64,000 nucleotides of DNA from Shigella phage ESh20. Where the stretch lies: sequence record ON528730. One strand, 5' to 3'. A program made the position numbers and the translations under genes. The notes beneath the pieces were generated by a model, which saw only the letters and a list, made by a program, of their open reading frames with translations, searched no databases and had not been told where the DNA came from. Position 1 is the stretch's first letter. Each line of letters begins with the position of its first letter. This document shows positions 3,430 through 60,566 of this stretch, in pieces.

Positions 3430-3659
3430 TAAGCCTCCTTATCTTCAAACAACTTTTGTTGAGACTCAATATAGTCCATTCGTTCTTTGAGTTCAACACG
3501 TTTGCTTAACAGATGTTGAATTTGTGATTCCAGAGCATCCATCTCAGCTTCTGTAGCTGACTTAGCTTTACTGATAGTTTCCTTCAGTGCTGCTACGCCA
3601 CTCTGGATTTTAGAAACATGGTCATTTTTGATTTTATTAAACATTTTAAACTCTCTCAT
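3429..3659 (-). CDS. Hypothetical coiled-coil protein (76 aa)
   Basis: ORF track; start overlaps upstream stop. Confidence 0.45.
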   Translation of the reverse strand: MREFKMFNKIKNDHVSKIQSGVAALKETISKAKSATEAEMDALESQIQHLLSKRVELKERMDYIESQQKLFEDKEA

Positions 3660-4146
3660 TAAGTTTCATGATTTTAGTGATTCTCTTCTCAGCTTCATCA
3701 TAAGTCTCTTTTGTAAGAAACTTGATTGCTGCAATGTTCGCATTGTAGAAGAGTCGAAGCTGAGAGTCAATCCTTTTTGTCATGACGTCAAACTTATGTT
3801 GTAGGTTAGCTTCGCCATAAACCAAGCCACCTCGCGTATAGTAAGTCTGGATGATGTAGAAGTCAAACTCTTTTTCACCAAAAGATTCAATATCCTTCTT
3901 AATGTACTCAGAAGATGTTTGGTAAGTCATCCAATCACTTTCTTTTGTCACGACTTTACGTCTGGTCTTTCCAGCAACCTTTTTCTTAGTGACGTTATTA
4001 AATTGTTTCTTTCCAATATAATATTGTCCAGTTTTCTTACAGTATACTAAATAGACAAAACCAAAATAGTTAGCGGGGTCAATTTCCCCGCACAGTGAAA
4101 TCCAATGTCCATAAACAGGGCAATTTCCAAATCCTTTAATCTTCAT
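3646..4146 (-). CDS. Putative GIY-YIG family endonuclease
   Basis: N-terminal GFVYLVYCKKTGQYYIGKK resembles the GIY...YIG motif pair. Confidence 0.45.
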   Translation of the reverse strand: MKIKGFGNCPVYGHWISLCGEIDPANYFGFVYLVYCKKTGQYYIGKKQFNNVTKKKVAGKTRRKVVTKESDWMTYQTSSEYIKKDIESFGEKEFDFYIIQTYYTRGGLVYGEANLQHKFDVMTKRIDSQLRLFYNANIAAIKFLTKETYDEAEKRITKIMKLNERV

Positions 4147-5238: not shown

Positions 5239-6099
5239 TTACTCGTCGTCAGTTTCGAAATCATCTTCGTCATCATCATCTGGGTTTGGCAGGTCGTCGT
5301 CATCGTCATCACCACCTTTACCTTCATCACCAGAATCTTTTGCATCTTCTTCAGTGATTTCACCGTTGTCTTCAACACCTGCAAGACCAAGCATTGCCAG
5401 TTCATCTTCATCCAGTTCAGTCTCAGTAGCACCACCAGTACCACCAGTGTAAGGAACCAGAGTATCAATGATAAATTGTTCCTGAATTGGCTTGGTCAGA
5501 ACGTTACCTTCAAATGTGTAGAAGTGAGTCGCCAGAATCACACTACCAAATGAGCCGTTACCAACTGCAATATCTGGATGAATTACATCGTAAGTCTTAT
5601 CATCATCGTGCTTATCAGATTTTGCTGCCTTGATTTTCTTCATAGGCTGCTTAACTGCAACACGCTTACCGTTGATTTCTTCAACCAGCATTACAGGGAA
5701 ACTCTGTTTTGCTGACCACACAGCACCGTCTTTATATGCTGCTGAACGGCTAACCTTCAGGATGTGATAGGTGTCAGCTTCAAACGGAGGCTCACAACCA
5801 AACTTCTCTTCGAAGTCATCTGCATCAACAGCCTCTGTAGTAACTTTATCCCAACCTTCAGGACTCTTTTTAGACTTGGTGAACTCTTTAAAGAGCTTGT
5901 TACCATCTTTTGCCAGAATTGAAACGCTGTAGTTACAATCTTTGCCCGGAAAATGCTTATCCACAGATTTACCCTTTTGAGGACGTGGAATAGTGTTCAG
6001 GTAATAGAACCAAACATCTTTCAGTAGGTAACGCAGAGTCTCACGTTCTTGACCATTGTACTTCTCTACCGGAGCTTTCATTTTAACAACTTTAGACAT
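5239..6099 (-). CDS. Putative single-stranded DNA-binding protein
   Basis: 286 aa in replication module with strongly acidic C-terminal tail DDDDDDLPNPDDDDEDDFETDDE typical of phage SSBs. Confidence 0.4.
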   Translation of the reverse strand: MSKVVKMKAPVEKYNGQERETLRYLLKDVWFYYLNTIPRPQKGKSVDKHFPGKDCNYSVSILAKDGNKLFKEFTKSKKSPEGWDKVTTEAVDADDFEEKFGCEPPFEADTYHILKVSRSAAYKDGAVWSAKQSFPVMLVEEINGKRVAVKQPMKKIKAAKSDKHDDDKTYDVIHPDIAVGNGSFGSVILATHFYTFEGNVLTKPIQEQFIIDTLVPYTGGTGGATETELDEDELAMLGLAGVEDNGEITEEDAKDSGDEGKGGDDDDDDLPNPDDDDEDDFETDDE

Positions 6100-6184
6100 T
6101 TTAATACCTCTTTCTCAAATTAACTTTCAACTCAACTATCAAGGAGTACAATCTTACAGACTTCGTACTCCCTTGTCAAACACT

Positions 6185-6322
6185 TTAAGCAGATTTCTTA
6201 GCTGCTTTACGAGCCGTCTTACCCATGCGAACTCGCTTCTGTACATAGTATTCAGCAGGTTTACCAGCAGTTGCTTTCATGGAATCGCCAAATACTTTCT
6301 CGAATGCTTTAGAATGTTTCAT
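6185..6322 (-). CDS. Small basic protein (45 aa), not in ORF track
   Basis: Own translation MKHSKAFEKVFGDSMKATAGKPAEYYVQKRVRMGKTARKAAKKSA; ATGA start/stop overlap with upstream gene. Confidence 0.35.
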   Translation of the reverse strand: MKHSKAFEKVFGDSMKATAGKPAEYYVQKRVRMGKTARKAAKKSA

Positions 6323-6600
6323 GAATCTCTCCGATATATTTCATATTCAAAATGTTTATTAGTCAAGGTAAAGATGTAAACTGTAGATAAACCATCAATC
6401 GCTAATGCAAACTGCTCAACATTATCTTTTGATAAGTGCTCAAACTTTACTTCATGTCCCTTGTTGATGAGTACTTTACCGAACTGCTCTATCTTAGTCA
6501 AGCACTCTTTTACAAATTTTTTTCTACTTTCTTCTGAATAGAAGGGTTCAAAACCCTCCTTCAGATAACTATCAATCAGTTTCGAACGGACAGTCATCAT
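6319..6600 (-). CDS. Hypothetical protein (93 aa)
   Basis: ORF track. Confidence 0.5.
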   Translation of the reverse strand: MMTVRSKLIDSYLKEGFEPFYSEESRKKFVKECLTKIEQFGKVLINKGHEVKFEHLSKDNVEQFALAIDGLSTVYIFTLTNKHFEYEIYRRDS

Positions 6601-8563
6601 TATCCTCGTTAATCACAGGTGGAATGGTGGAGCTTTCACGTTGCTCTTGTGTGTAAATCTCTCCAGATTCACGGTCAAAATCAACATCTTCATAGTGTGG
6701 CATAGAGTCATCATAATGGTCTTCAGCCTCACCAATACCAAACTGCTGACGAATATTCTCTGCTGCACCATCAATATCAACACCACATCCAGCAGCCTTT
6801 ACAAGACGGCCTGTATCTGGATTGTACCAAGTGTGACCAGCAATACCAGTTGATTTACCATGACGACGACATTTCGTTAACTTGATTTTTGTCAAGTTCT
6901 TTTTAACAGGGTCTGGGTCAACCTTGTTACGCATAAGTAAAATGTTGTTCATGGAAATCTGGAAGTATGCACCAGAACCCTTGATATCTTCTTCAGAAAT
7001 ATCACCACCTTCAGAGTTAGCCTTTTGACCACCTGCACTCTTACGAACGTGACACACGTTTACCTGAGCATACTGATAACGCTTACAGCGACGAAGTAAC
7101 TCAGACAGAACTTCTTCTTCATCTGTATCAGAGCGTGACAGCGCCAATGTAATAGGGTCAAGGATGATAATCTTACAATCAAGACTGTTAACCAGATAGT
7201 CAACAAACTCCAGCAGGTTATCTTGGTCAATTGCCCCTTGGTGGTCTACGATGTGGATACGACGACCTTTTGACAACTCAGCATGTGCAACCTTAATCTC
7301 ATCCCAATTACGCTCATCGTAAGGAATCTCTGAAATCTGCTTACTAAGATGGATTGCACAGAGCATTTCCATAAGTTCTTCGTAAGTATCCTCTACAGGA
7401 ATTACACCGATGTTGTACTCAGTATCCTTCCATGCTTTGTAAATCATTTCACGAGTATATGCAGATTTACCTACAGATGAAGGTGCAGCAAGGGTTGTAA
7501 TCTCGCCTAAACCATACCCGCCATAAGTCAGCTTATTCAAATCCCCGAAAGAATCTGGGAAAGGAATTAAAGGAATCTGACCACGATTCTTCATAGCATC
7601 GAAACCATCTGCAAAGTTCTTGATACCAGCAGGGCAGTAACGAGGTGCATTGTAGATTCGTTGTTTAAATCCTTCTAAGACTGTATCTTTGTCTTTGAAG
7701 AACTTAGTCCACCACTCACTAAGGTCTTTAATACCCTCAGGATACTGGAACAGTCTTACTTTCTCAATAGGTAAGATACCAGCAGCTTCCTTAGTTGCTT
7801 TAGCCCCTGCTTCATCATTATCAAAGCATAGGTAAATCTCATCAAAGGAAGTAATATACTGATAGTTCTCTTTGATGGACTTAACATTAGCACCGGATGG
7901 TACAGAAACGTGGCAGTAATTCTTACGTCTAGACTTATCTTTAATTGCTAAAGAAGTCATGTAGATTGCTGTAGCACATTCCATCTCACCTTCCCAGATG
8001 AAAAGACGGTTACCACCTTCTGGAGCAATCCATGAACCGAACATAGCCAGTTCACCTTTAATATCCCCAACACCACCAGAAAAGTCTTTCAACTTCCCAC
8101 GTAAGTGCTCTTTATGATAGTCATCTGGATATTTGTGACGAACACGATAACCTACATGTTGCAACTTCCCATCTTCATCCTTTTTGTATGTTGGATAGAA
8201 ATGTGCATCAATATCACCGTTATCATCAATATCAACTTTAATACCAAGACGCTCAAGGACTTTTGCAGGAATCTTCCTGTCTTTTAAATCCATTGCTTCT
8301 AGGTTTTCTTTCACATCATCTAAATCCATACCACGAAATGTACGGTTTTTATTCTCTGAACCTGAAGTATGAGTACTCACAATCTGCCCTTTATCAAAAT
8401 CCCACTCTGGAAAACCTTTTCCACAACTGAAACATGTCATTGAATATGAACCGTCATCATGACGATATATAGAACCTGCATCTGAAGATAAACATTGAGG
8501 GCGTGGACATGCACAGTGACCTACAAATGTTCCAGCATCTTTCAGTTTTCTCTGTTTAGCCAT
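6572..8563 (-). CDS. DNA primase/helicase (T7 gp4-like)
   Basis: N-terminal Cys4 zinc motif CPRPQC...CFSCGKG, TOPRIM-like FDNDEAGAKA, Walker A APSSVGKSAY, Walker B-like IIILDP. Confidence 0.9.
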   Translation of the reverse strand: MAKQRKLKDAGTFVGHCACPRPQCLSSDAGSIYRHDDGSYSMTCFSCGKGFPEWDFDKGQIVSTHTSGSENKNRTFRGMDLDDVKENLEAMDLKDRKIPAKVLERLGIKVDIDDNGDIDAHFYPTYKKDEDGKLQHVGYRVRHKYPDDYHKEHLRGKLKDFSGGVGDIKGELAMFGSWIAPEGGNRLFIWEGEMECATAIYMTSLAIKDKSRRKNYCHVSVPSGANVKSIKENYQYITSFDEIYLCFDNDEAGAKATKEAAGILPIEKVRLFQYPEGIKDLSEWWTKFFKDKDTVLEGFKQRIYNAPRYCPAGIKNFADGFDAMKNRGQIPLIPFPDSFGDLNKLTYGGYGLGEITTLAAPSSVGKSAYTREMIYKAWKDTEYNIGVIPVEDTYEELMEMLCAIHLSKQISEIPYDERNWDEIKVAHAELSKGRRIHIVDHQGAIDQDNLLEFVDYLVNSLDCKIIILDPITLALSRSDTDEEEVLSELLRRCKRYQYAQVNVCHVRKSAGGQKANSEGGDISEEDIKGSGAYFQISMNNILLMRNKVDPDPVKKNLTKIKLTKCRRHGKSTGIAGHTWYNPDTGRLVKAAGCGVDIDGAAENIRQQFGIGEAEDHYDDSMPHYEDVDFDRESGEIYTQEQRESSTIPPVINEDNDDCPFETD

Positions 8564-10776: not shown

Positions 10777-11035
10777 GATTGCCTCTGTTAAGTATCTATA
10801 AAGATTTTAATCTCTTATCTTTATGTATGTTATACATATAACTTTAAAGCTTTTTAAAAGCTATTAAAAATCTTTTAAGACTTTTAAAGAAACTGTATAG
10901 TTAATCTATAAAGGGAGTCTATTAAGATAAAACCCACTTCGAAAAGACTAACACCTTGTCAAGTAGTTTGTCAACTTGCTTTTTGAAGAAAATTGCTGTA
11001 GGGTATTATCCAGAATGATTTGAGAGGGAGTAAAA
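10777..11035. promoter_or_regulatory. Divergent AT-rich control region between minus-strand and plus-strand early blocks
   Basis: 260 bp non-coding; 7-bp inverted repeat TATGTAT-gtt-ATACATA (10822-10838); TTGTCAAG...TTGTCAAC repeats (10956-10978); TATTAT -10-like at 11004-11009; RBS GAGGGAG before ATG 11036. Confidence 0.45.
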
Positions 11036-13735
11036 ATGGACAATGTAGATTTCGAAAAATTACATTTGGTTGGTGATACAGAAACTGATGGGTTGCTCCT
11101 TGAGTTTACAAAAGCACACGTAATGGCTTTCGCAGACTATAAAGATGACAGTGATGAACCTGCTGTGTGGGTTTTCACTGATGAGCCTATTCTTGGTCAC
11201 AAGTATACAAAATACATCAAAGGTGGTCTGCGTGAAGGTGTTGAGTTTGCACTGAAAGCTAAACGTCTTTGCATACATAATGGTTTAGGTTATGACTGGT
11301 GGGTGTTTAATCACATTGCACCTGACCTGTGGAACTTTGAGAATCCTAAGTGCAAGCCTTGGAGTGACTTCTTTCAGGATTCACTTATCCAATCTCGCGT
11401 ACAGTGGATGGATAGACCTACACCAAAAGGTTACAAAGGTGCTCATGGTTTGGCTGCATGGGGTGCTCGTGTTGGTGTTCGTAAACCAGAGATTGAAGAG
11501 TGGGGTGTCTGGAATGCAGAGATTCTTACTCGTGTTGTAGAAGATATTAAGATTAACGCCAAAACTAAACGTGCTCTTGATAATGAGTACCTCAAGCTTA
11601 AGAAGTGTGGTGTTGACACTTATGAAACCTACATGCGAGCTAAAGAAACATCTTTCTGGATGAGTCAGCAAGCTATCAACGGTTGGAAAGCTGATGTAGA
11701 ACTTATGCAGTTCCACGTTAAAGAGCTTGACAAGTTAACTAATGAGTTGGCTGCTGAGGTTGAACCACACCTTCCACCAACTATTAAGACAAAAGGTAAA
11801 GTCACAGGTGAAGAATTTGCCAAGTCTTGGAATGAGTATGTAGATACATTTGGTCACGTTGACGGTTTAAAAAGGATTACCAAGCACCCTAAGACAAAGT
11901 ATCGTGAACAGATGCGTGAAGGTGAGTTGAAGCAGTACCCTATCAAGCCATATGGTAAGCCAACCACAAAGATTTTTAATGTTGAGAAACGCAACTGCTA
12001 CACTCCAACTAACACGGTCACAAAAGAAGAGTACCCTGAAGGTTTTGTAGCAATGAAAGATGCTCGTGCAGTTTGTAATGAACTGAATGAGAAGATTGGC
12101 AAGAAGTGTAAAGATTGGAAGCCAGTTAAGACTGTGAAAACTGTGAAGTACTACAACGTTCACGTTGTTAATCACTTTGAGTTAGAGTCTAGTCGCTACA
12201 CTGGTTTGATTGATGCACCATTCACACCAATTGAGTTTGAAGTTTCACGAATGACTCAGGTAGCTGTGGTGAAGGATTACTTAAAATCCGTTGGCTGGAT
12301 TCCTGATGATTGGAACTATAAAAAAGATTCTGACGGTCGTCCTATCAAGGTTTGCAGGTTCAAAGACAACAAAAAGATGATTCGCAAACATCCTAAGTGG
12401 GATGAGATGGTTGAACGTTGTGGGTTGAACTATATTGAGCATGAAGGTGTCTACTACATCGAGCATAACTGGTCTGTTAAGAAGTACACAGATGTGCTTG
12501 AACCTTGCTTGATTAGGACTTCACCAAAGCTTACAGAGTCTTCTTATGATACAATCGAAGGTGAGCTTGGACAGAAGATTGCGAAGTACTATACTTTGAT
12601 GCACCGACGCAGGACTATTGAGAACTCAAAGGATGATGAGAAAGGTTGGCTGAACCAGATTCGTCCAGATGGTCGTTTGAGTGCAGGTGCAATGGTGTTT
12701 GGTACTTCTACTGGACGTATGACTCAGTATGGTATTGTAAACGTACCTTCTGGTGCTGCTGTTTACGGTGAGCCAATGAGGGCAGTGTGGATTTGTGAAG
12801 AAGGAACCAACGTAGTATCTGTTGATATGAACTCTGCACAGCTTGTACTACTCTGTAACTTCATGGGTGATAAAGACTTCACCAAAGCGGTAACAGAGGG
12901 TAAAGAAGAGATTGAGTTTGTTCGTCAAGAGGATGGAAGATACTACTGCAAACACTTTGACCAGTATCTGAATCCAGAGATTGACAAGTATCTGCGTTAT
13001 GACTCTGAAAACGATTTGTACGTAGTTTACTCAGGGACTGATGCTCACACTCTGAACAGTATCTACTTCAGCCTTAATGATGAGCAAGATATCTTGACTT
13101 GTCGTGCTACTCAGGATGAGAATCTTCTTCATGAGATTAGCAAGGGACGTAAGAAAGCTAAGAATGGTATCTATGCCCTGTTGTTCGGTGCAGGTGATGA
13201 GAAGTTTGCTAAAACAATTAAAGCAGCAACTACTCAGGAAGGTGCATTGACTAAGCAGACTTACTTTGTGCGTTTGCCGAAGATTAAGAAACTGTTAGAC
13301 AACTTGGAAGCTGATTTCAAAGCAACTAAGAAAGCACTTGAAGAGGTGTTTGGTAAAACTGCTGCGATAGCTAAAGGTGGTTTTGTGAAGGTTGCTGGAG
13401 CTTGGCTGTGGTGTAAGTCTCCACACAAGCTGTTAAATTACCTTTTGATGGGTTCAGAAAGTCAAGTCCAGAATGAAGCAATTAACCTTGCATGTCGTAG
13501 AGCATATGATGAAGGGTTGATGAAACTAAATGGGCGTAAGCCAGCTATTGGAGCTAGACTTCTTCTGGCATACCACGACGAAAATAGTTGGGAATGTCCA
13601 GAAAGTATGACTCAAGAAGTTAAGGCTATTACTGACTGGATGTACGGACAAGCTTCTAAAAACCTTGGACTAAGGAAAGAAACCTTGGTAACAGGTACTG
13701 GTAAAGTTGGTAAGAGCTGGTTGGAAGTTCACTAA
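11036..13735 (+). CDS. DNA polymerase, family A, with 3'-5' exonuclease domain
   Basis: Exo I motif DTETDGL; motif B-like RKKAKNGIYALLFG; motif C HDE. Confidence 0.9.
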   Translation: MDNVDFEKLHLVGDTETDGLLLEFTKAHVMAFADYKDDSDEPAVWVFTDEPILGHKYTKYIKGGLREGVEFALKAKRLCIHNGLGYDWWVFNHIAPDLWNFENPKCKPWSDFFQDSLIQSRVQWMDRPTPKGYKGAHGLAAWGARVGVRKPEIEEWGVWNAEILTRVVEDIKINAKTKRALDNEYLKLKKCGVDTYETYMRAKETSFWMSQQAINGWKADVELMQFHVKELDKLTNELAAEVEPHLPPTIKTKGKVTGEEFAKSWNEYVDTFGHVDGLKRITKHPKTKYREQMREGELKQYPIKPYGKPTTKIFNVEKRNCYTPTNTVTKEEYPEGFVAMKDARAVCNELNEKIGKKCKDWKPVKTVKTVKYYNVHVVNHFELESSRYTGLIDAPFTPIEFEVSRMTQVAVVKDYLKSVGWIPDDWNYKKDSDGRPIKVCRFKDNKKMIRKHPKWDEMVERCGLNYIEHEGVYYIEHNWSVKKYTDVLEPCLIRTSPKLTESSYDTIEGELGQKIAKYYTLMHRRRTIENSKDDEKGWLNQIRPDGRLSAGAMVFGTSTGRMTQYGIVNVPSGAAVYGEPMRAVWICEEGTNVVSVDMNSAQLVLLCNFMGDKDFTKAVTEGKEEIEFVRQEDGRYYCKHFDQYLNPEIDKYLRYDSENDLYVVYSGTDAHTLNSIYFSLNDEQDILTCRATQDENLLHEISKGRKKAKNGIYALLFGAGDEKFAKTIKAATTQEGALTKQTYFVRLPKIKKLLDNLEADFKATKKALEEVFGKTAAIAKGGFVKVAGAWLWCKSPHKLLNYLLMGSESQVQNEAINLACRRAYDEGLMKLNGRKPAIGARLLLAYHDENSWECPESMTQEVKAITDWMYGQASKNLGLRKETLVTGTGKVGKSWLEVH

Positions 13736-13744
13736 GGTGTTGAA

Positions 13745-14272
13745 ATGCTTACAAAAAATCGTTTAAAGGAGCTTTTAGAATATGACCCCGATACAGGGGT
13801 CTTTACTTGGTTACCAAGAGATGGGAATACACGTTCTGTTAAAGTTTTTAATAGTAGGTATGCAGGGAAAGTAGCTGGCAGCATTCAAGTAGACTCTTCA
13901 AAACACAAGCAGTTGGTTATCTATGTTGACAAAAAGAGTTACAAAGCACACAGACTCGCATGGCTGTATATGTATGGTGAACTCCCAGATGGTATAGTTG
14001 ACCACAAAAACGGAGACTCGCTGGATAATAGGTTTGTTAATCTAAGACTTGTTGATGATTATCAAAGTGCATGGAATAAAGGTAAGTTACTGACAAACAA
14101 ATCTGGATTCAAAGGGGTTTCCAGAAAGAAGAGAACTGGAAGGTGGGTTGCACAAATAAGCTACAAAGGTAAGAAGATACATATAGGAACTTATGACACA
14201 CCTGAAGAAGCCCATGAAGCTTACTGTGAAGCTGCTATAAAACTCCACGGGGATTTTGCAAAACTTAGTTGA
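13745..14272 (+). CDS. HNH homing endonuclease with AP2 DNA-binding domain
   Basis: HNH motif AHRLAWLYMYGELPDGIVDHKNGDSLDNRFVNLRL; AP2-like GVSRKKRTGRWVAQISYKGKKIHIGTYDTPEEAHEAY. Confidence 0.8.
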   Translation: MLTKNRLKELLEYDPDTGVFTWLPRDGNTRSVKVFNSRYAGKVAGSIQVDSSKHKQLVIYVDKKSYKAHRLAWLYMYGELPDGIVDHKNGDSLDNRFVNLRLVDDYQSAWNKGKLLTNKSGFKGVSRKKRTGRWVAQISYKGKKIHIGTYDTPEEAHEAYCEAAIKLHGDFAKLS

Positions 14273-14324
14273 CAAGGTGCTCATGGAAGAGTATCTTATA
14301 CTATATATTGTATAGGAGACTTGT

Positions 14325-14525
14325 ATGACTATTTCAGAAATTGAAGTTCAACTGCAATGTGCTGGATATTCTCAAAGTGAGATTGAGGCTATGTGCATCA
14401 TCATTTGCAGTAGCCATAAGCACCTCAAGCTTTCTAATGAAAATCTTCGCAAGGTTGATATTTTTATTGCTGGAGGTAAGATTATCAAGGATAAGACAGG
14501 CTACCTTAAAGGTGAACGTCTATGA
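14325..14525 (+). CDS. Hypothetical protein (66 aa)
   Basis: ORF track; RBS TAGGAGA upstream; ATGA overlap with next gene. Confidence 0.5.
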   Translation: MTISEIEVQLQCAGYSQSEIEAMCIIICSSHKHLKLSNENLRKVDIFIAGGKIIKDKTGYLKGERL

Positions 14526-14731
14526 GCCACCGTGGAAGAACCCATCTCGCCATGATGCAAGGTGCTTCAAAAGAGACTATCAAGAATCGGAAGAAAACTC
14601 TTTTTGACAGAATGAATAGACTCATTGATAATGCAAGCCTACCTAACTCTGAAAAGGTTTTCTTGAAAGGGAATCTGAAGAGTATTGCACAGGAACTTAT
14701 TGACATTGAATTTTGGAGACACCAAAAATGA
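14522..14731 (+). CDS. Hypothetical protein (69 aa)
   Basis: ORF track; ATGA overlaps on both sides. Confidence 0.5.
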   Translation: MSHRGRTHLAMMQGASKETIKNRKKTLFDRMNRLIDNASLPNSEKVFLKGNLKSIAQELIDIEFWRHQK

Positions 14732-14814
14732 CATACGAAGAAGCTCTCGAAGCTATGAAACAGGGCAAGAAAGTTCGAAATGAAAATTTCACATCTGAGA
14801 GTTCTTTGAAATAA
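14728..14814 (+). pseudogene. Truncated or frameshifted small ORF with DUF2829-like N-terminus
   Basis: Own translation MTYEEALEAMKQGKKVRNENFTSESSLK then stop; an overlapping frame stays open 14799-14915. Confidence 0.35.
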
Positions 14815-15037
14815 AAGACGGAAAGGTTGTATGTGAAATGGGTTACCCAATGGCTGCATGGTACAAGGGGGAACCTTGGCAGAAAACTGGATGGAGTATC
14901 TTTAATGAAACTTTATAGCATTTGGGGAAGAGTTGGTGAAGGTTATGACTGGACTCTTCTTAAAACAAATGTTAAAAGTAACGAGATAGCTTACTACAAA
15001 ATCTATTACCATAAAACTTTTAGAGAGGTAGAGTATC

Positions 15038-15289
15038 GTGAGCAATAAAGAGCAAGAAGCTTTAGCAATCTTCAAGAGCGAAGACAAATCAATAGCTTTT
15101 GTCTCAGAGGCTTGGTGCAGGGATTTGGGGTATGATTGGTATATCTTCTTATGCGCTAAGAAAGATGTTAAACCAGTTGATGAAACCCGATTCAAAGAAC
15201 TGTATAATATCTGCCAAGAGGGTTATGAAGAACATTACGAAGGTTCTTTGAATCCTGTAAATTCAAAAGCTTCAGATTTATTTTATTGA
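15038..15289 (+). CDS. Hypothetical protein (83 aa), GTG start
   Basis: ORF track. Confidence 0.45.
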   Translation: MSNKEQEALAIFKSEDKSIAFVSEAWCRDLGYDWYIFLCAKKDVKPVDETRFKELYNICQEGYEEHYEGSLNPVNSKASDLFY

Positions 15290-15299
15290 GAGGTTTGAA

Positions 15300-15545
15300 A
15301 TGTTAAAATTATTGATACCAGCTTTAGTAGTCCTACTGGTTGGATGTAACCCTTCTTATGAGAATAAGGATGCTTCTTACAGACTTCCTCCAGAAATGCA
15401 AGACTGCAAGATTTATAAACTTAATGGTGATGCCATTAGCAGGGATGTTATTGTAGTTCGCTGCCCAAATTCTCAGACGACAACTTCTTACAAGTATGGG
15501 AAGAATAGTCAGTCACACACCACAGTTTTTGATGGGGGATATTAA
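15300..15545 (+). CDS. Putative small lipoprotein
   Basis: Signal peptide with lipobox MLKLLIPALVVLLVGC. Confidence 0.55.
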   Translation: MLKLLIPALVVLLVGCNPSYENKDASYRLPPEMQDCKIYKLNGDAISRDVIVVRCPNSQTTTSYKYGKNSQSHTTVFDGGY

Positions 15546-22269: not shown

Positions 22270-24648
22270 TTATGCAGTTCTTACCCAAGCCATTAATTTA
22301 ATGTAAGTGTTAAGAACACTGAATGCTGCACCAGAACCAGTTGCACCAGTGTTACCACTGAATGTATGGTTGTGAGCACCAATACCTACACCGTGACCGT
22401 GAGCACCTACCCAACTTGTTCTTCCTGTCCAAGTTCTTGATGCGTAGAAGTTAACTGGTGTACCATAAGTGAACTGTGAACCAGTGTAACCTCTAGACGC
22501 TTGTGAACCTGAGATAGCAAACGCCCCACTTGCTGTATAAAAGCTGTTTGCGTCACTTCTGAAGAAACCAAAGTCACCAGAGATTTCCATGTTACCTCTG
22601 TCATGGTCGTGAGCACCTTGAGCGTCTGTGTACTTAGTACCATAATCAAAGGTAGTGGTTGTTCCAGAGAAGCTGTGAGTGTGCGCAGGGATATGACCAA
22701 CACTTAATGCAACTGTATCAGCACCACCAAGCCCTTTCACATCGGAACCATTTGCAGAACCAATTCTAATGGTTCTGTTTGCACCCTCTGTCAAGTAAGT
22801 CCAAGTAGTGCCTGGGAAAGCTGTATTTGGGTTGACATTAGAAGCAAAGAACGTCACAATACCAACTGGATACACTTTCTTAAGGTCTGTAGAATCAGTT
22901 ACCGCAGAGGCAATACGTTGGTCTACTTCAGCCTTGGTGTAAGCACCAAGTTCAGCAGGTGTAGGTTTAGCCTTATCTGTATAGATTTTAGACCAAAACT
23001 CTTCAAAACCAAAACTGTCCCTTGCCGTTCTATAGTAGATTCCACCATTTTTGTATTCGAACCTAAGCTGTGCAGAAGGTGTGGATGCGCCAATCCCAAG
23101 GTACATTTGGTAAACTAAGTGAGTTGAACCACCACTTGAACTTGTAACATTGTACAAACCTGTTTTTGCATTCCAAGCAACACCTGTTTCATCACCGACT
23201 TCGGTTCCCGTTCCAGATACACCAGACAACATATATCTTGAGTTTGCAGCAGATTGTGTGTAGTATCTTGAGTCAAAGTTTGACCAATCTGTAGGCTGAA
23301 CCTGACCGGTTACTGATACACTTCTGTTGAACATGAAAGTATCAGCAATTTCTAACTGAACACCACCGCTTGAGTAGTTATACAGGAATAGAGAATTTGG
23401 TCTACTACCTTCACCGTTACCAACATACCAACGTCTGTTGCCGTCTGCATTAGCACCAACAATATACAGTGGTGAATTAGCTGTCCCACTTTGCAATGTG
23501 AAAGCCGCATCTGTAGTAACAATAGTTTGTGGGTTAGTAAAAACGTTTGCAGCATTAGTTCTTGCAAGAACGTTCGTTAAAGAGCTTGGAACATATCTTG
23601 TATCAAAGTTTGCAAAGTCACTTGGTTTTACCTGACCAGATACATTAATAGCTTTGTTAAATGAAAACTCTGTAGCAATTTTCAAGTTAACATTTGTCAT
23701 CTGGTTTGCTAAAACAATCTCAGACTGCGTACCATCTGGTTGACCCACATACCAAGCACCTGTCCCAGCACTGTTGTAACCACGCATAAATAATGCAGCA
23801 TTCTCTGTAGCCGCTCTTAAGTTAAGTGCATTTCTATCTGCAATAACATAAGTCTTCCCGTTGAAGTTGTTAACCCCAACAAAGTTATTACTTGCATTAA
23901 GTCTTGCAAATCTCTGGTCAGCAGCAGTCTGTGTAAAGAATCTTGCATCAAGGTTGTTCCAGTTATTAGGCTGAACCTGACCATTGATTTCAAAGTTCTT
24001 GTCAACACTAACAGAGTTTGTACCAAGAGTCAACGTAGCACCTTTGCTGTTAACTAATGTAACATCAGTACCAGAAGTCAAGTTACCAACTGTGAATCTC
24101 AAAGCATTATTTGAATCTCTTGCTTCAATATATGCTCCACCATCTGGTAAGATGCTTTTAAGTGTTAAACCAACACCGTTGATATTAATGATTTGTCTTG
24201 CCAAGAAGGTATTTTCAGTTTCCTTCATAGCATATCTTGCATCATTTTCAGTATTAGTTCTCATACCTAATTCATTAGGAGATGGTTTATTAAGTGTGTG
24301 ATAAACTGTTGCAGACCTTGTGGCATCATTTACAGTTAATCTTAAAGCACTTGCATTAATTCTAAAGGTCTTGGCAGTGTCACCGAGAATAACTTCAGAA
24401 GAACCTGTTGGGTCTAATAAGTCTTTTCCACCGTATCTTAATTTGACGATGCCAAGATTCCCTGTCATATCCCCACCAGTTAGTTGTAAGAATCTTTCTA
24501 GTTTGAAAGAGGCAAGGAAATTTGCATAGGTCATTTTACGGTCTTCATCACCTAGCATATCAGACCTTTTGATAATTCTTAGGTGAAGTAAATCTTCTGA
24601 GCGAACTGTATCAATACTGTTTAGCTCACTTAGCTTATATTCAGCCAT
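22270..24648 (-). CDS. Tail fibre protein with His-x-His-rich C-terminal tip
   Basis: 792 aa; internal repeats NLDARFFTQTAADQRFARL / NFDTRYVPSSL / NFDSRYYTQSAANSRY; C-terminal HTHS, GAHDHD, GAHGHGVGIGAHNHT motifs. Confidence 0.75.
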   Translation of the reverse strand: MAEYKLSELNSIDTVRSEDLLHLRIIKRSDMLGDEDRKMTYANFLASFKLERFLQLTGGDMTGNLGIVKLRYGGKDLLDPTGSSEVILGDTAKTFRINASALRLTVNDATRSATVYHTLNKPSPNELGMRTNTENDARYAMKETENTFLARQIININGVGLTLKSILPDGGAYIEARDSNNALRFTVGNLTSGTDVTLVNSKGATLTLGTNSVSVDKNFEINGQVQPNNWNNLDARFFTQTAADQRFARLNASNNFVGVNNFNGKTYVIADRNALNLRAATENAALFMRGYNSAGTGAWYVGQPDGTQSEIVLANQMTNVNLKIATEFSFNKAINVSGQVKPSDFANFDTRYVPSSLTNVLARTNAANVFTNPQTIVTTDAAFTLQSGTANSPLYIVGANADGNRRWYVGNGEGSRPNSLFLYNYSSGGVQLEIADTFMFNRSVSVTGQVQPTDWSNFDSRYYTQSAANSRYMLSGVSGTGTEVGDETGVAWNAKTGLYNVTSSSGGSTHLVYQMYLGIGASTPSAQLRFEYKNGGIYYRTARDSFGFEEFWSKIYTDKAKPTPAELGAYTKAEVDQRIASAVTDSTDLKKVYPVGIVTFFASNVNPNTAFPGTTWTYLTEGANRTIRIGSANGSDVKGLGGADTVALSVGHIPAHTHSFSGTTTTFDYGTKYTDAQGAHDHDRGNMEISGDFGFFRSDANSFYTASGAFAISGSQASRGYTGSQFTYGTPVNFYASRTWTGRTSWVGAHGHGVGIGAHNHTFSGNTGATGSGAAFSVLNTYIKLMAWVRTA

Positions 24649-46968: not shown

Positions 46969-47194
46969 AACGAACTCTTGAAAGAATATATGCGTTATTG
47001 CAAGTATCCTTATTTTCAGGTAGTGATGTTTCGAAGATAACTTGCTTAAGTTCTAATCCAGCAAAGTTATAAACAATCTTTCTAACTTCTAACGGGTCAC
47101 ATTGCCAACCAACCGCTATAAAGAAAGTATCTCCAAATCTACCTGTTTCAATCTTGTGGTCATCTTTATGTTTTTCAACTATGAGTTTATACAT
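46967..47194 (-). CDS. Hypothetical protein within tRNA array (75 aa)
   Basis: ORF track; fills gap between two tRNAs. Confidence 0.35.
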   Translation of the reverse strand: MYKLIVEKHKDDHKIETGRFGDTFFIAVGWQCDPLEVRKIVYNFAGLELKQVIFETSLPENKDTCNNAYILSRVR

Positions 47195-47212
47195 AATGTT
47201 ACCTATTAAATT

Positions 47213-48724: not shown

Positions 48725-48843
48725 TTGGCAGTCAAGGTAGGAGTCGAACCTACTTACTATTAAAGGGAGCTACCCTTCAGCAACTATCCGACTTTCGTTT
48801 ATCTCTTAACGCGTATCCAAGATAACTTACTCGTGTTGTCTTG
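48725..48843 (-). ncRNA. tRNA-like element with about 40-nt internal insertion (not a canonical tRNA)
   Basis: CCA-rc and 7-bp acceptor AGTCAAG paired with CTTGACC 119 nt apart; canonical T-arm GTAGG-TTCGACT-CCTAC; no canonical anticodon arm identified. Confidence 0.4.
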
Positions 48844-48854
48844 ACCATTAAAAT

Positions 48855-59545: not shown

Positions 59546-59839
59546 ATGAGTTTAAATTTGAAAGAAGGTCAGAAGGTTGTTATTGTTGACTACGACACAA
59601 AAAGCCTATTAACAAAAGGTGTGGTTACTGATATTGGTTCATCAGGAAATTACCCTATTGGTGTTAAAATTGATGAACCCTTTGTAATAGGTTCTGATGA
59701 CAAAGATGAGTTGTCTTTTCTCACAGGTGAGAGACTAACTTTCAACGGAGAATACCTATACCGTGGACATGTACATGAAGACCACAAGAAATGGGATTTA
59801 GAAGTGTTATCCGAAGAATACTATAACAAAAATTATTGA
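59546..59839 (+). CDS. Hypothetical protein (97 aa)
   Basis: ORF track. Confidence 0.5.
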   Translation: MSLNLKEGQKVVIVDYDTKSLLTKGVVTDIGSSGNYPIGVKIDEPFVIGSDDKDELSFLTGERLTFNGEYLYRGHVHEDHKKWDLEVLSEEYYNKNY

Positions 59840-59848
59840 GGCAAAACT

Positions 59849-60145: not shown

Positions 60146-60566
60146 AGAGACAGTACGCAAAGCTATGCTTAACAATGGTACTAAAGATGATATGTATAAA
60201 GATATCGTCGAAGACCTTGGTTGTTCAAGACATGCTGCAAAGGTTCTTCTTCATAGCTTTATCTGGGAGTGTTCAGAAGCTTACATGCAATCTGTAATAA
60301 CTGAAGGGCTTGATATGTCTCTACCTGAACGCTTCAAAGAAGAGACTAAGGCTAGTTCCATAAAGCTAAACACACTCTATATTGTAGAAACCGTTGATAC
60401 AGGTGAACCAGTAGGCACAATACATATTGAAAGTATGTGTGATGGTAAGTTCCTTGGTTATGGTGAAGCAAACGCATATAGTGCATTCTCAACCGCACAC
60501 TGGATAGTTGAAAATGATGGGTATATTCAGGTCAATGGTAAAAATACTTTCAAACTTAAGATGTGA
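60132..60566 (+). CDS. Hypothetical protein (about 144 aa)
   Basis: ORF track frame; start set to ATG 60132. Confidence 0.45.
   Translation: MKNVKETVRKAMLNNGTKDDMYKDIVEDLGCSRHAAKVLLHSFIWECSEAYMQSVITEGLDMSLPERFKEETKASSIKLNTLYIVETVDTGEPVGTIHIESMCDGKFLGYGEANAYSAFSTAHWIVENDGYIQVNGKNTFKLKM

Follow-up and report, generated by a model that had tools for sequence, protein, structure and literature searches.

A probable HNH-AP2 homing endonuclease gene beside the DNA polymerase gene of Shigella phage ESh20, acquired from an Sf13-like donor

Described relatives of the locus

Homing endonucleases that join an HNH or HNN nuclease to an AP2 domain form an established class, with reported members in phages, cyanobacteria and also protists (Magnani 2004, cited in both PMC10448857 and PMC2248197). 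The HNN-AP2 enzymes of the Xanthomonas phages Xp10, OP1 and Xop411 (PMC2248197) and the IPA-HNH enzymes gp59 and gp209 of ICP1 (PMC10448857) share with the protein studied here an N-terminal His-Me finger and a C-terminal AP2 domain. As in the phage ESh20, the genes of these enzymes are free-standing, variable in their presence and often located beside DNA polymerase genes: 29% of the IPA-HNH genes adjoin polymerase genes, and the nuclease genes lie at boundaries of genetic exchange (Barth et al. 2023, PMC10448857). Unlike the IPA-HNH proteins of ICP1 (PMC10448857), the ESh20 protein gives a direct match to the Pfam HNH_3 profile. The Xanthomonas genes are scattered without site fidelity (PMC2248197), whereas in the present case many alleles use a single site.

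Among solved structures, sequence similarity to the nuclease half of the ESh20 protein was detected for one alone, that of I-HmuI, the HNH nicking endonuclease of Bacillus phage SPO1 (PDB 1u3e). The match is weak (E 0.16), with VDHK aligned on VDHK and the NLR box aligned as well. I-HmuI is intron-encoded and targets the polymerase gene itself, whereas the ESh20 region is without an intron; the C-terminal DNA-binding module of I-HmuI also differs from AP2. Other precedents are the free-standing homing endonucleases exemplified by the seg and mob genes of T4, which are the basis of the mechanism proposed below. SegF, SegG and MobE (T4-type) and F-CphI are encoded by free-standing genes in spacers beside conserved essential genes, and they cut the neighbour gene of the empty allele away from the insertion point, co-converting the flanking markers. 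Behavior of this kind is what the mosaic tract of ESh20 would suggest by analogy. SegF and SegG are GIY-YIG enzymes and MobE is an HNH enzyme; none of these proteins, F-CphI included, is known to have an AP2 domain.

The stretch of DNA that we analyzed, hereafter the window, comprises 64,000 nucleotides of Shigella phage ESh20, a Mooglevirus (Ounavirinae, Felix O1-like). The phage (ON528730) came from sewage and was isolated for a therapeutic cocktail against Shigella, and its description makes no mention of homing (PMC9686686). The polymerase protein of the window has an exact match only in ESh20 (URY12483.1; one contig, 89,515 bp). The nuclease protein has exact matches in Sf13 (ATE85904.1 / YP_009612715.1) and in URY12484.1, the accession adjoining the ESh20 polymerase entry. 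The Sf13 product, gp104, was deposited as a 'putative HNH homing endonuclease', and its annotation adds 'putative transcriptional regulator'; the nuclease gene is therefore already deposited and annotated publicly, and the element is ordinary in kind. In both phages the polymerase gene is followed, at the same position, by an identical gene of 528 nt for an identical protein of 175 residues. The backbone, however, differs, that of ESh20 being Sf15/3HA14-like.

The nuclease gene and the occupancy of its site

The coordinates of the features are collected in Table 1. The original prediction had described an ORF that starts 10 bp past the stop codon of a DNA polymerase gene, carries both an HNH motif and an AP2-type domain and thereby has the hallmark of a free-standing homing endonuclease, and our analysis agrees with it on each of these points. 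The upstream gene is a family-A DNA polymerase gene according to both Pfam and PHROG. The ATG of the nuclease ORF is the first start after an in-frame stop, and it is separated from the polymerase TAA (13733-13735) by nine bases, GGTGTTGAA, beginning at the 10th base after the stop. The domain searches returned HNH_3 with an E-value of 2.9e-15 (56.1 bits against a cut-off of 24.8) and AP2 with 2.7e-14 (53.6 bits against a cut-off of 33.3), and PHROG 99 'HNH endonuclease' matches over the full length of the protein (E 7.9e-71). With both domains, a separate ORF and a polymorphic site, which is described below, the reading as a free-standing homing endonuclease gene is supported.

Table 1. Features of the polymerase-nuclease region of ESh20 (positions in the window)
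Feature	Position	Strand	Remarks
Family-A DNA polymerase gene	11036..13735	+	899 aa; Pfam DNA_pol_A E 1.4e-14; PHROG 17 E 7e-113
Sf13-type tract, maximal extent	13256..14306		minimal extent 13399-14267; from informative sites, Sf15 vs Sf13
Shine-Dalgarno-like AAGGTG	13734..13739	+	overlaps the polymerase stop; the nuclease ATG follows after 5 nt
DNA absent from the empty allele (Sf15 and others)	13736..14267		ends ambiguous by a few nt
HNH(HNN)-AP2 gene, free-standing, probable homing endonuclease	13745..14272	+	175 aa; DNA 100% identical to Sf13 gp104
GC-rich hairpin GACCCC-GATACA-GGGGTC	13784..13801	+	codons D14 P15 .. G18 V19, 5' coding region
HNH_3 (His-Me finger) nuclease domain	13940..14053	+	aa 66-103; Pfam
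AP2-type DNA-binding domain	14102..14251	+	aa 120-169; Pfam
3' block with almost no synonymous variation	14207..14263	+	codons 155-173, all allele classes; abuts a conserved intergenic block
Promoter-like block TTGACA-17 nt-TATCTT	14269..14297	+	for downstream small genes; conserved in filled and empty sites

The HRLAW, D/H, DNR and NLR boxes known from the Xanthomonas phages are all found in the ESh20 nuclease. Residues D86 and H87 of the catalytic core are encoded at 14000-14005 and, together with N95, N99, L100, R101 and N111, are invariant in 21 alleles whose pairwise identities range from 37 to 99%. Judged from these residues, the nuclease core is intact. The AP2 half matches the plant AP2/ERF structures 7wq5 (E 6.5e-10), 5wx9, 7et4 and 1gcc, with E-values from 6.5e-10 to 0.014. 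A single-sequence AlphaFold2 model of the protein has a low mean pLDDT of 44.5; residues 121-160, which reach 64-75 in this low-confidence model, form a strand-strand-strand-helix arrangement compatible with AP2.

An Rfam scan of 10800-15000 gave no family at E<=1, so that no group I or group II intron was detected in this region, and the nuclease gene is free-standing rather than intron-encoded. It forms a separate ORF with its own ATG and Shine-Dalgarno-like sequence, and the polymerase, a conserved essential gene which the element abuts, is one uninterrupted ORF. When paralogues of the nuclease protein were sought in the window by tblastn, the gene itself was the sole match. Since a promoter scan found no promoter-like site between the two genes, the Shine-Dalgarno-like sequence lies at the polymerase stop and the alleles of one class (class C) overlap that stop, the nuclease gene is probably expressed by read-through from the polymerase transcript.

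To survey the site, positions 12500-15500 were compared by megablast with 50,697 phage records, which yielded 265 related records. In the nearest backbone relatives, Sf15, 3HA14, SFPB, Sf17, Sf18, KMM2 and Mordin, the site is empty and its flanks are conserved. These genomes align in two pieces, the record span being about 528 bp shorter than the query, and in the annotation of the gene-less relatives the polymerase gene is followed directly by small hypothetical genes. The empty site has the sequence pol-TAA + TAGTGTTGACAAGG..., the same flanks being parted by the gene in the window; in the alignment it reads pol-TAA + TAGTGTTGACAAGGTGCTCATGG... A short GTTGA / TAGT repeat is present at both ends, and the boundaries of the insertion are therefore ambiguous by a few nucleotides. 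At 99% identity or above, the nuclease gene occurs in Sf13 records only.

A sample from IMG/VR, anchored on the C-terminus of the polymerase and unbiased with respect to the nuclease gene, consisted of 31 distinct viral contigs. The site directly after the polymerase stop is occupied in 17 of them and empty in the other 14. Presence/absence polymorphism at this junction, which had been put forward as a check, is thus real, and the gene is not universal between its conserved flanks. The HNH-AP2 alleles of the occupied sites form at least four divergent classes (100% or 72-76%, 52-54%, 45-48% and 42-44% identical to the window protein), and all of them start within ~0-18 nt of the polymerase stop. 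Across three genera, the same site holds one of at least four classes or nothing, and the classes may differ in specificity. The 271-nt spacers of some empty genomes were considered as degraded nuclease remnants and rejected, as they contain a different small gene (a phrog_5180 homologue).

Downstream of the site, Mordin and Michonne, two phages of one species, match at 100% over 2.4 kb. The nuclease gene distinguishes them, as do an adjoining small gene that has been swapped and the polymerase, which is ~95% identical throughout, so that the site marks a boundary between differently related segments. The mosaic around the site is too untidy for the two to serve as a second clean pair of donor and recipient.

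The Sf13-type tract and its likely origin

Over 25 kb, the window is 98.4% identical to Sf15 at 98% coverage, and Sf13 is ~92% identical there. Over the full 64 kb, the identities are 98.3% to Sf15, whose position 22335 corresponds to position 1 of the window, and 95.5% to Sf13. Informative substitutions between the two relatives reveal a sharp exception around the nuclease gene. From 11000 to 13255, 324 are of the Sf15 type and 19 of the Sf13 type; from 13256 to 14306, all 76 are of the Sf13 type; and from 14307 to 15000, the Sf15 type returns with 93 against 2. Put as shares of the informative sites, the Sf13 type has 19 of 346 to the left of the tract, 76 of 76 within it and 2 of 96 to the right. 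The Sf13-type tract measures 869-1051 bp and consists of 337-480 bp of the 3' end of the polymerase gene and the nuclease gene, plus no more than 39 bp beyond it. Its left crossover lies within 13256-13398, a block of 143 nt that is identical in both parents, and its right crossover within 14268-14306, in the conserved promoter-like block.

As a control, the whole window was scanned in 200-nt bins for identity to Sf13 and Sf15. The bins from 13401 to 14200 are 100% identical to Sf13, and to Sf15 they are 76-83% identical or have no counterpart, which makes them the strongest Sf13-over-Sf15 patch of the window. The first 46 kb contain no insertion relative to Sf15 other than the nuclease gene. 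The only other marked Sf13-type patch, at 22801-23200 in the tail-fibre region, is 99.5% identical to Sf13 against 85-95% to Sf15 and is without a nuclease gene. Farther along, the segments 46970-47201, 48752-48851, 59549-59845 and 60288-60555 have no Sf15 counterpart, and the first three have none or a partial one in Sf13 as well.

The polymerase protein is accordingly chimeric, being of the Sf15 type to about residue 740 and of the Sf13 type from about residue 788. It differs from that of Sf15 at 12 residues, 10 of which fall within residues 809-888, and from that of Sf13 at none after residue 779. A comparable case is KPS64, in which an Sf17-like backbone is combined with another nuclease allele at this site and the polymerase 3' end turns Sf13-like from ~13499. 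A gene identical to that of Sf13 inside an Sf15/3HA14-like backbone reveals a transfer, and the pattern of substitutions indicates that the gene arrived recently by recombination from an Sf13-like donor. Sf13 and Sf15 were both obtained from the same river sediment, so phages of these kinds do co-occur. The expectation that such elements mark recombination-prone sites is also upheld by this tract of ~0.9-1.05 kb, which holds the gene within a genome otherwise of the Sf15 type.

We consider it likely that the gene belongs to the HNH (HNN-type His-Me finger) plus AP2 class of free-standing homing endonuclease genes. The form of the tract is what homing would be expected to leave, the 3' end of the polymerase gene being co-converted. 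By analogy with the T4-type systems, the enzyme would cut or nick the gene-less allele in a mixed infection, in or near the 3' end of the polymerase gene or at the empty junction. The break would then be resected and repaired from the gene-carrying genome, whereby the gene is copied and the flanking markers are co-converted, and the crossovers would resolve in the nearest blocks of perfect identity, 13256-13398 and 14268-14306. The asymmetry of the tract, with several hundred base pairs on the left and at most 39 bp on the right, is compatible with breakage in the 3' end of the polymerase gene or at the junction.

A search for the target site compared the C-terminal haplotypes of the polymerase in 38 loci by class of nuclease gene and found no clean association. 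The carriers dune and SUSP1/2 have an 'empty-type' haplotype, and the empty genomes L034-L036 have a window-like one. Since the haplotype does not segregate with the presence of the gene across genera, no resistant-target polymorphism can be named. G4/C4 tracts were also inspected as possible AP2 sites near the empty junction, with no consistent pattern.

The same tract might have been left by a passenger, that is, a gene that ordinary homologous recombination carried along in a co-infection, its product making no break and being perhaps inactive or without a target. We regard this as unlikely, even though it accounts for several observations. Each crossover falls in the nearest perfectly identical stretch, of 143 nt at the left and ~39 nt at the right, a pattern that ordinary recombination gives as well; the Sf13-type patch in the tail-fibre region has no nuclease gene; and the polymerase haplotype fails to track the gene across genera. 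However, the invariance of the catalytic residues in alleles down to 37% identity argues for continued selection on nuclease activity. The tract also hugs the gene, coinciding with the strongest Sf13-type patch in 64 kb and with the sole insertion in the first 46 kb, and the alternation of at least four allele classes with empty sites in three genera is typical of repeated invasion.

Still less probable, in our estimate, is that the protein has been domesticated and, instead of propagating itself by homing, serves chiefly as a transcription regulator of the AP2 type or as a weapon against rival phages or satellites. I-TevI is a precedent of an endonuclease that also autorepresses. The Sf13 annotation cited above names a regulator, and the only GACCCC-N6-GGGGTC inverted repeat in the 64 kb (0.01 expected) sits inside the nuclease gene. 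AP2 domains are said to favour GC-rich DNA, and the co-option of homing-endonuclease domains has been described (PMC10448857). Such a role, however, agrees poorly with a gene that is dispensable, being absent from close relatives, that has conserved nuclease residues and whose mobility is documented by the mosaic tract. As for the weapon, the cutting of competitor genomes would look the same as homing on present evidence. A role in packaging, as an HNH terminase cofactor of the HK97 gp74 type, can practically be dismissed: phage HNH proteins sometimes have such a role (PMC5304195), but this gene adjoins the polymerase gene in the replication module, the terminase gene being expected, by the Sf15 map, ~43 kb downstream in the window, and its product has an AP2 domain, belongs to the HNH_3/HNN group and is absent from many viable relatives.

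Conserved ends of the element and other nuclease loci

The inverted repeat mentioned above forms a hairpin near the start of the nuclease ORF. It is a stable local fold in both the MFE and the centroid structures, and a terminator scan flags it as well. The wider region of 121 nt folds no better than shuffled sequences (z = 0.21), so that the local stem alone is robust. In an unbiased set of 20 unique alleles at the site, with amino acid identities of 37-99%, the codons of the stem are almost fixed: GAC, CCC and GTC are each found in 20/20 and GGG in 19/20. In four large genes of the window, the shares of these codons in their codon families are 0% for CCC, 10% for GTC, 13% for GGG and 30% for GAC. 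Elsewhere in this alignment, the codons of invariant Gly, Pro and Ala residues are free to vary (0.9-1.9 bits), and the loop and the adjoining Tyr codon are variable among alleles.

The YDPxTGV peptide itself does not force the hairpin, since a perfect stem occurs in only three of 62 distant relatives that were retrieved by degenerate peptide patterns. All three are Ounavirinae contigs; the stem is absent from the 59/59 relatives outside the Ounavirinae, and the idea of a family-wide feature was rejected for this reason. These results indicate lineage-specific selection on the hairpin at the nucleotide level. Placed 40 nt into the ORF, the conserved GC hairpin may limit the read-through expression of the nuclease. 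Whether it works as an attenuator or processing site or as an AP2 operator is a guess on our part.

The second conserved element is the 3' block. The alleles of the window and KPS64 are 97% identical over 14200-14299 and near-identical in the first ~90 nt, and in the middle of the gene they are 52-59% identical. This alignment suggests that the core of the gene may be exchanged between conserved ends. We propose, tentatively and as a possibility that we hold to be doubtful, that the element may carry two cis features maintained in all Ounavirinae alleles at the site. One would be the rare-codon hairpin, which might dampen read-through as an attenuator or processing site, or serve as an AP2 operator; the other would be the 3' block, which together with the conserved 5' end may serve as a homology arm for replacement of the core at an occupied site. 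Beyond the 3' block, the TGA stop of the nuclease gene lies inside the TTGACA (-35-like hexamer) of the promoter-like block. A C->T change at 14294, private to the window, gives the -10-like TATCTT, which is nearer to the consensus than the TACCTT of the relatives.

A second nuclease gene, predicted at 3646-4146 as GIY-YIG-like, was identified as such: the minus-strand gene matches Pfam SegE_GIY-YIG with an E-value of 7.9e-28. It adjoins the exonuclease gene and is present in Sf15 and Sf13. Many Felixounaviruses are without a DNA match to this region, and Felix O1 has an annotated HNH gene beside its exonuclease gene instead; Mijalis and CHB7 have an additional HNH gene at the exonuclease site. 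The locus next to the exonuclease gene is thus a second variable nuclease site. Felix O1 as a whole has been noted with six HNH genes (PMC3185647).

Introns are also found among the relatives. In the Felixounaviruses REP8-12 and pSJ21, the polymerase gene is split in the region encoding motif B by a group I intron that contains no ORF; that of Escherichia phage REP12 (locus 2117-2400, ~13170 of the window) matches Rfam RF00028 with 61.7 bits and an E-value of 3.4e-15. The intron-bearing Felixounaviruses have a homologous nuclease gene just after the polymerase gene, and in the genome paper of Felix O1 introns were reported to be absent. 'Collaborative homing' with an intron was rejected for ESh20: the intron site at ~13170 is outside the tract, seven Sf15-type sites at 13186-13255 lie between them, and the window is intron-free. 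In an unrelated virus, the IMG/VR contig 3300010396_000197 encodes at 6034-6840 a relative of 269 residues in which the N-terminal YDPxxG + HNH module is duplicated in tandem ahead of a single AP2 domain.

ESh20 offers a clean worked example of a datable footprint of homing-type transfer, for which both donor-like (Sf13) and recipient-like (Sf15/3HA14) genomes are sequenced. The transfer produced a chimeric DNA polymerase with 10 amino acid replacements within residues 809-888. Elements of this kind shuffle essential genes among phages that are under development for therapy, the ESh phages having been isolated for a cocktail against Shigella (PMC9686686). With a carrier and its gene-less siblings, the same collection also makes a ready experimental system, and the hairpin conserved at synonymous sites and the 3' end conserved at the nucleotide level provide small new leads on the regulation and exchange of such genes.
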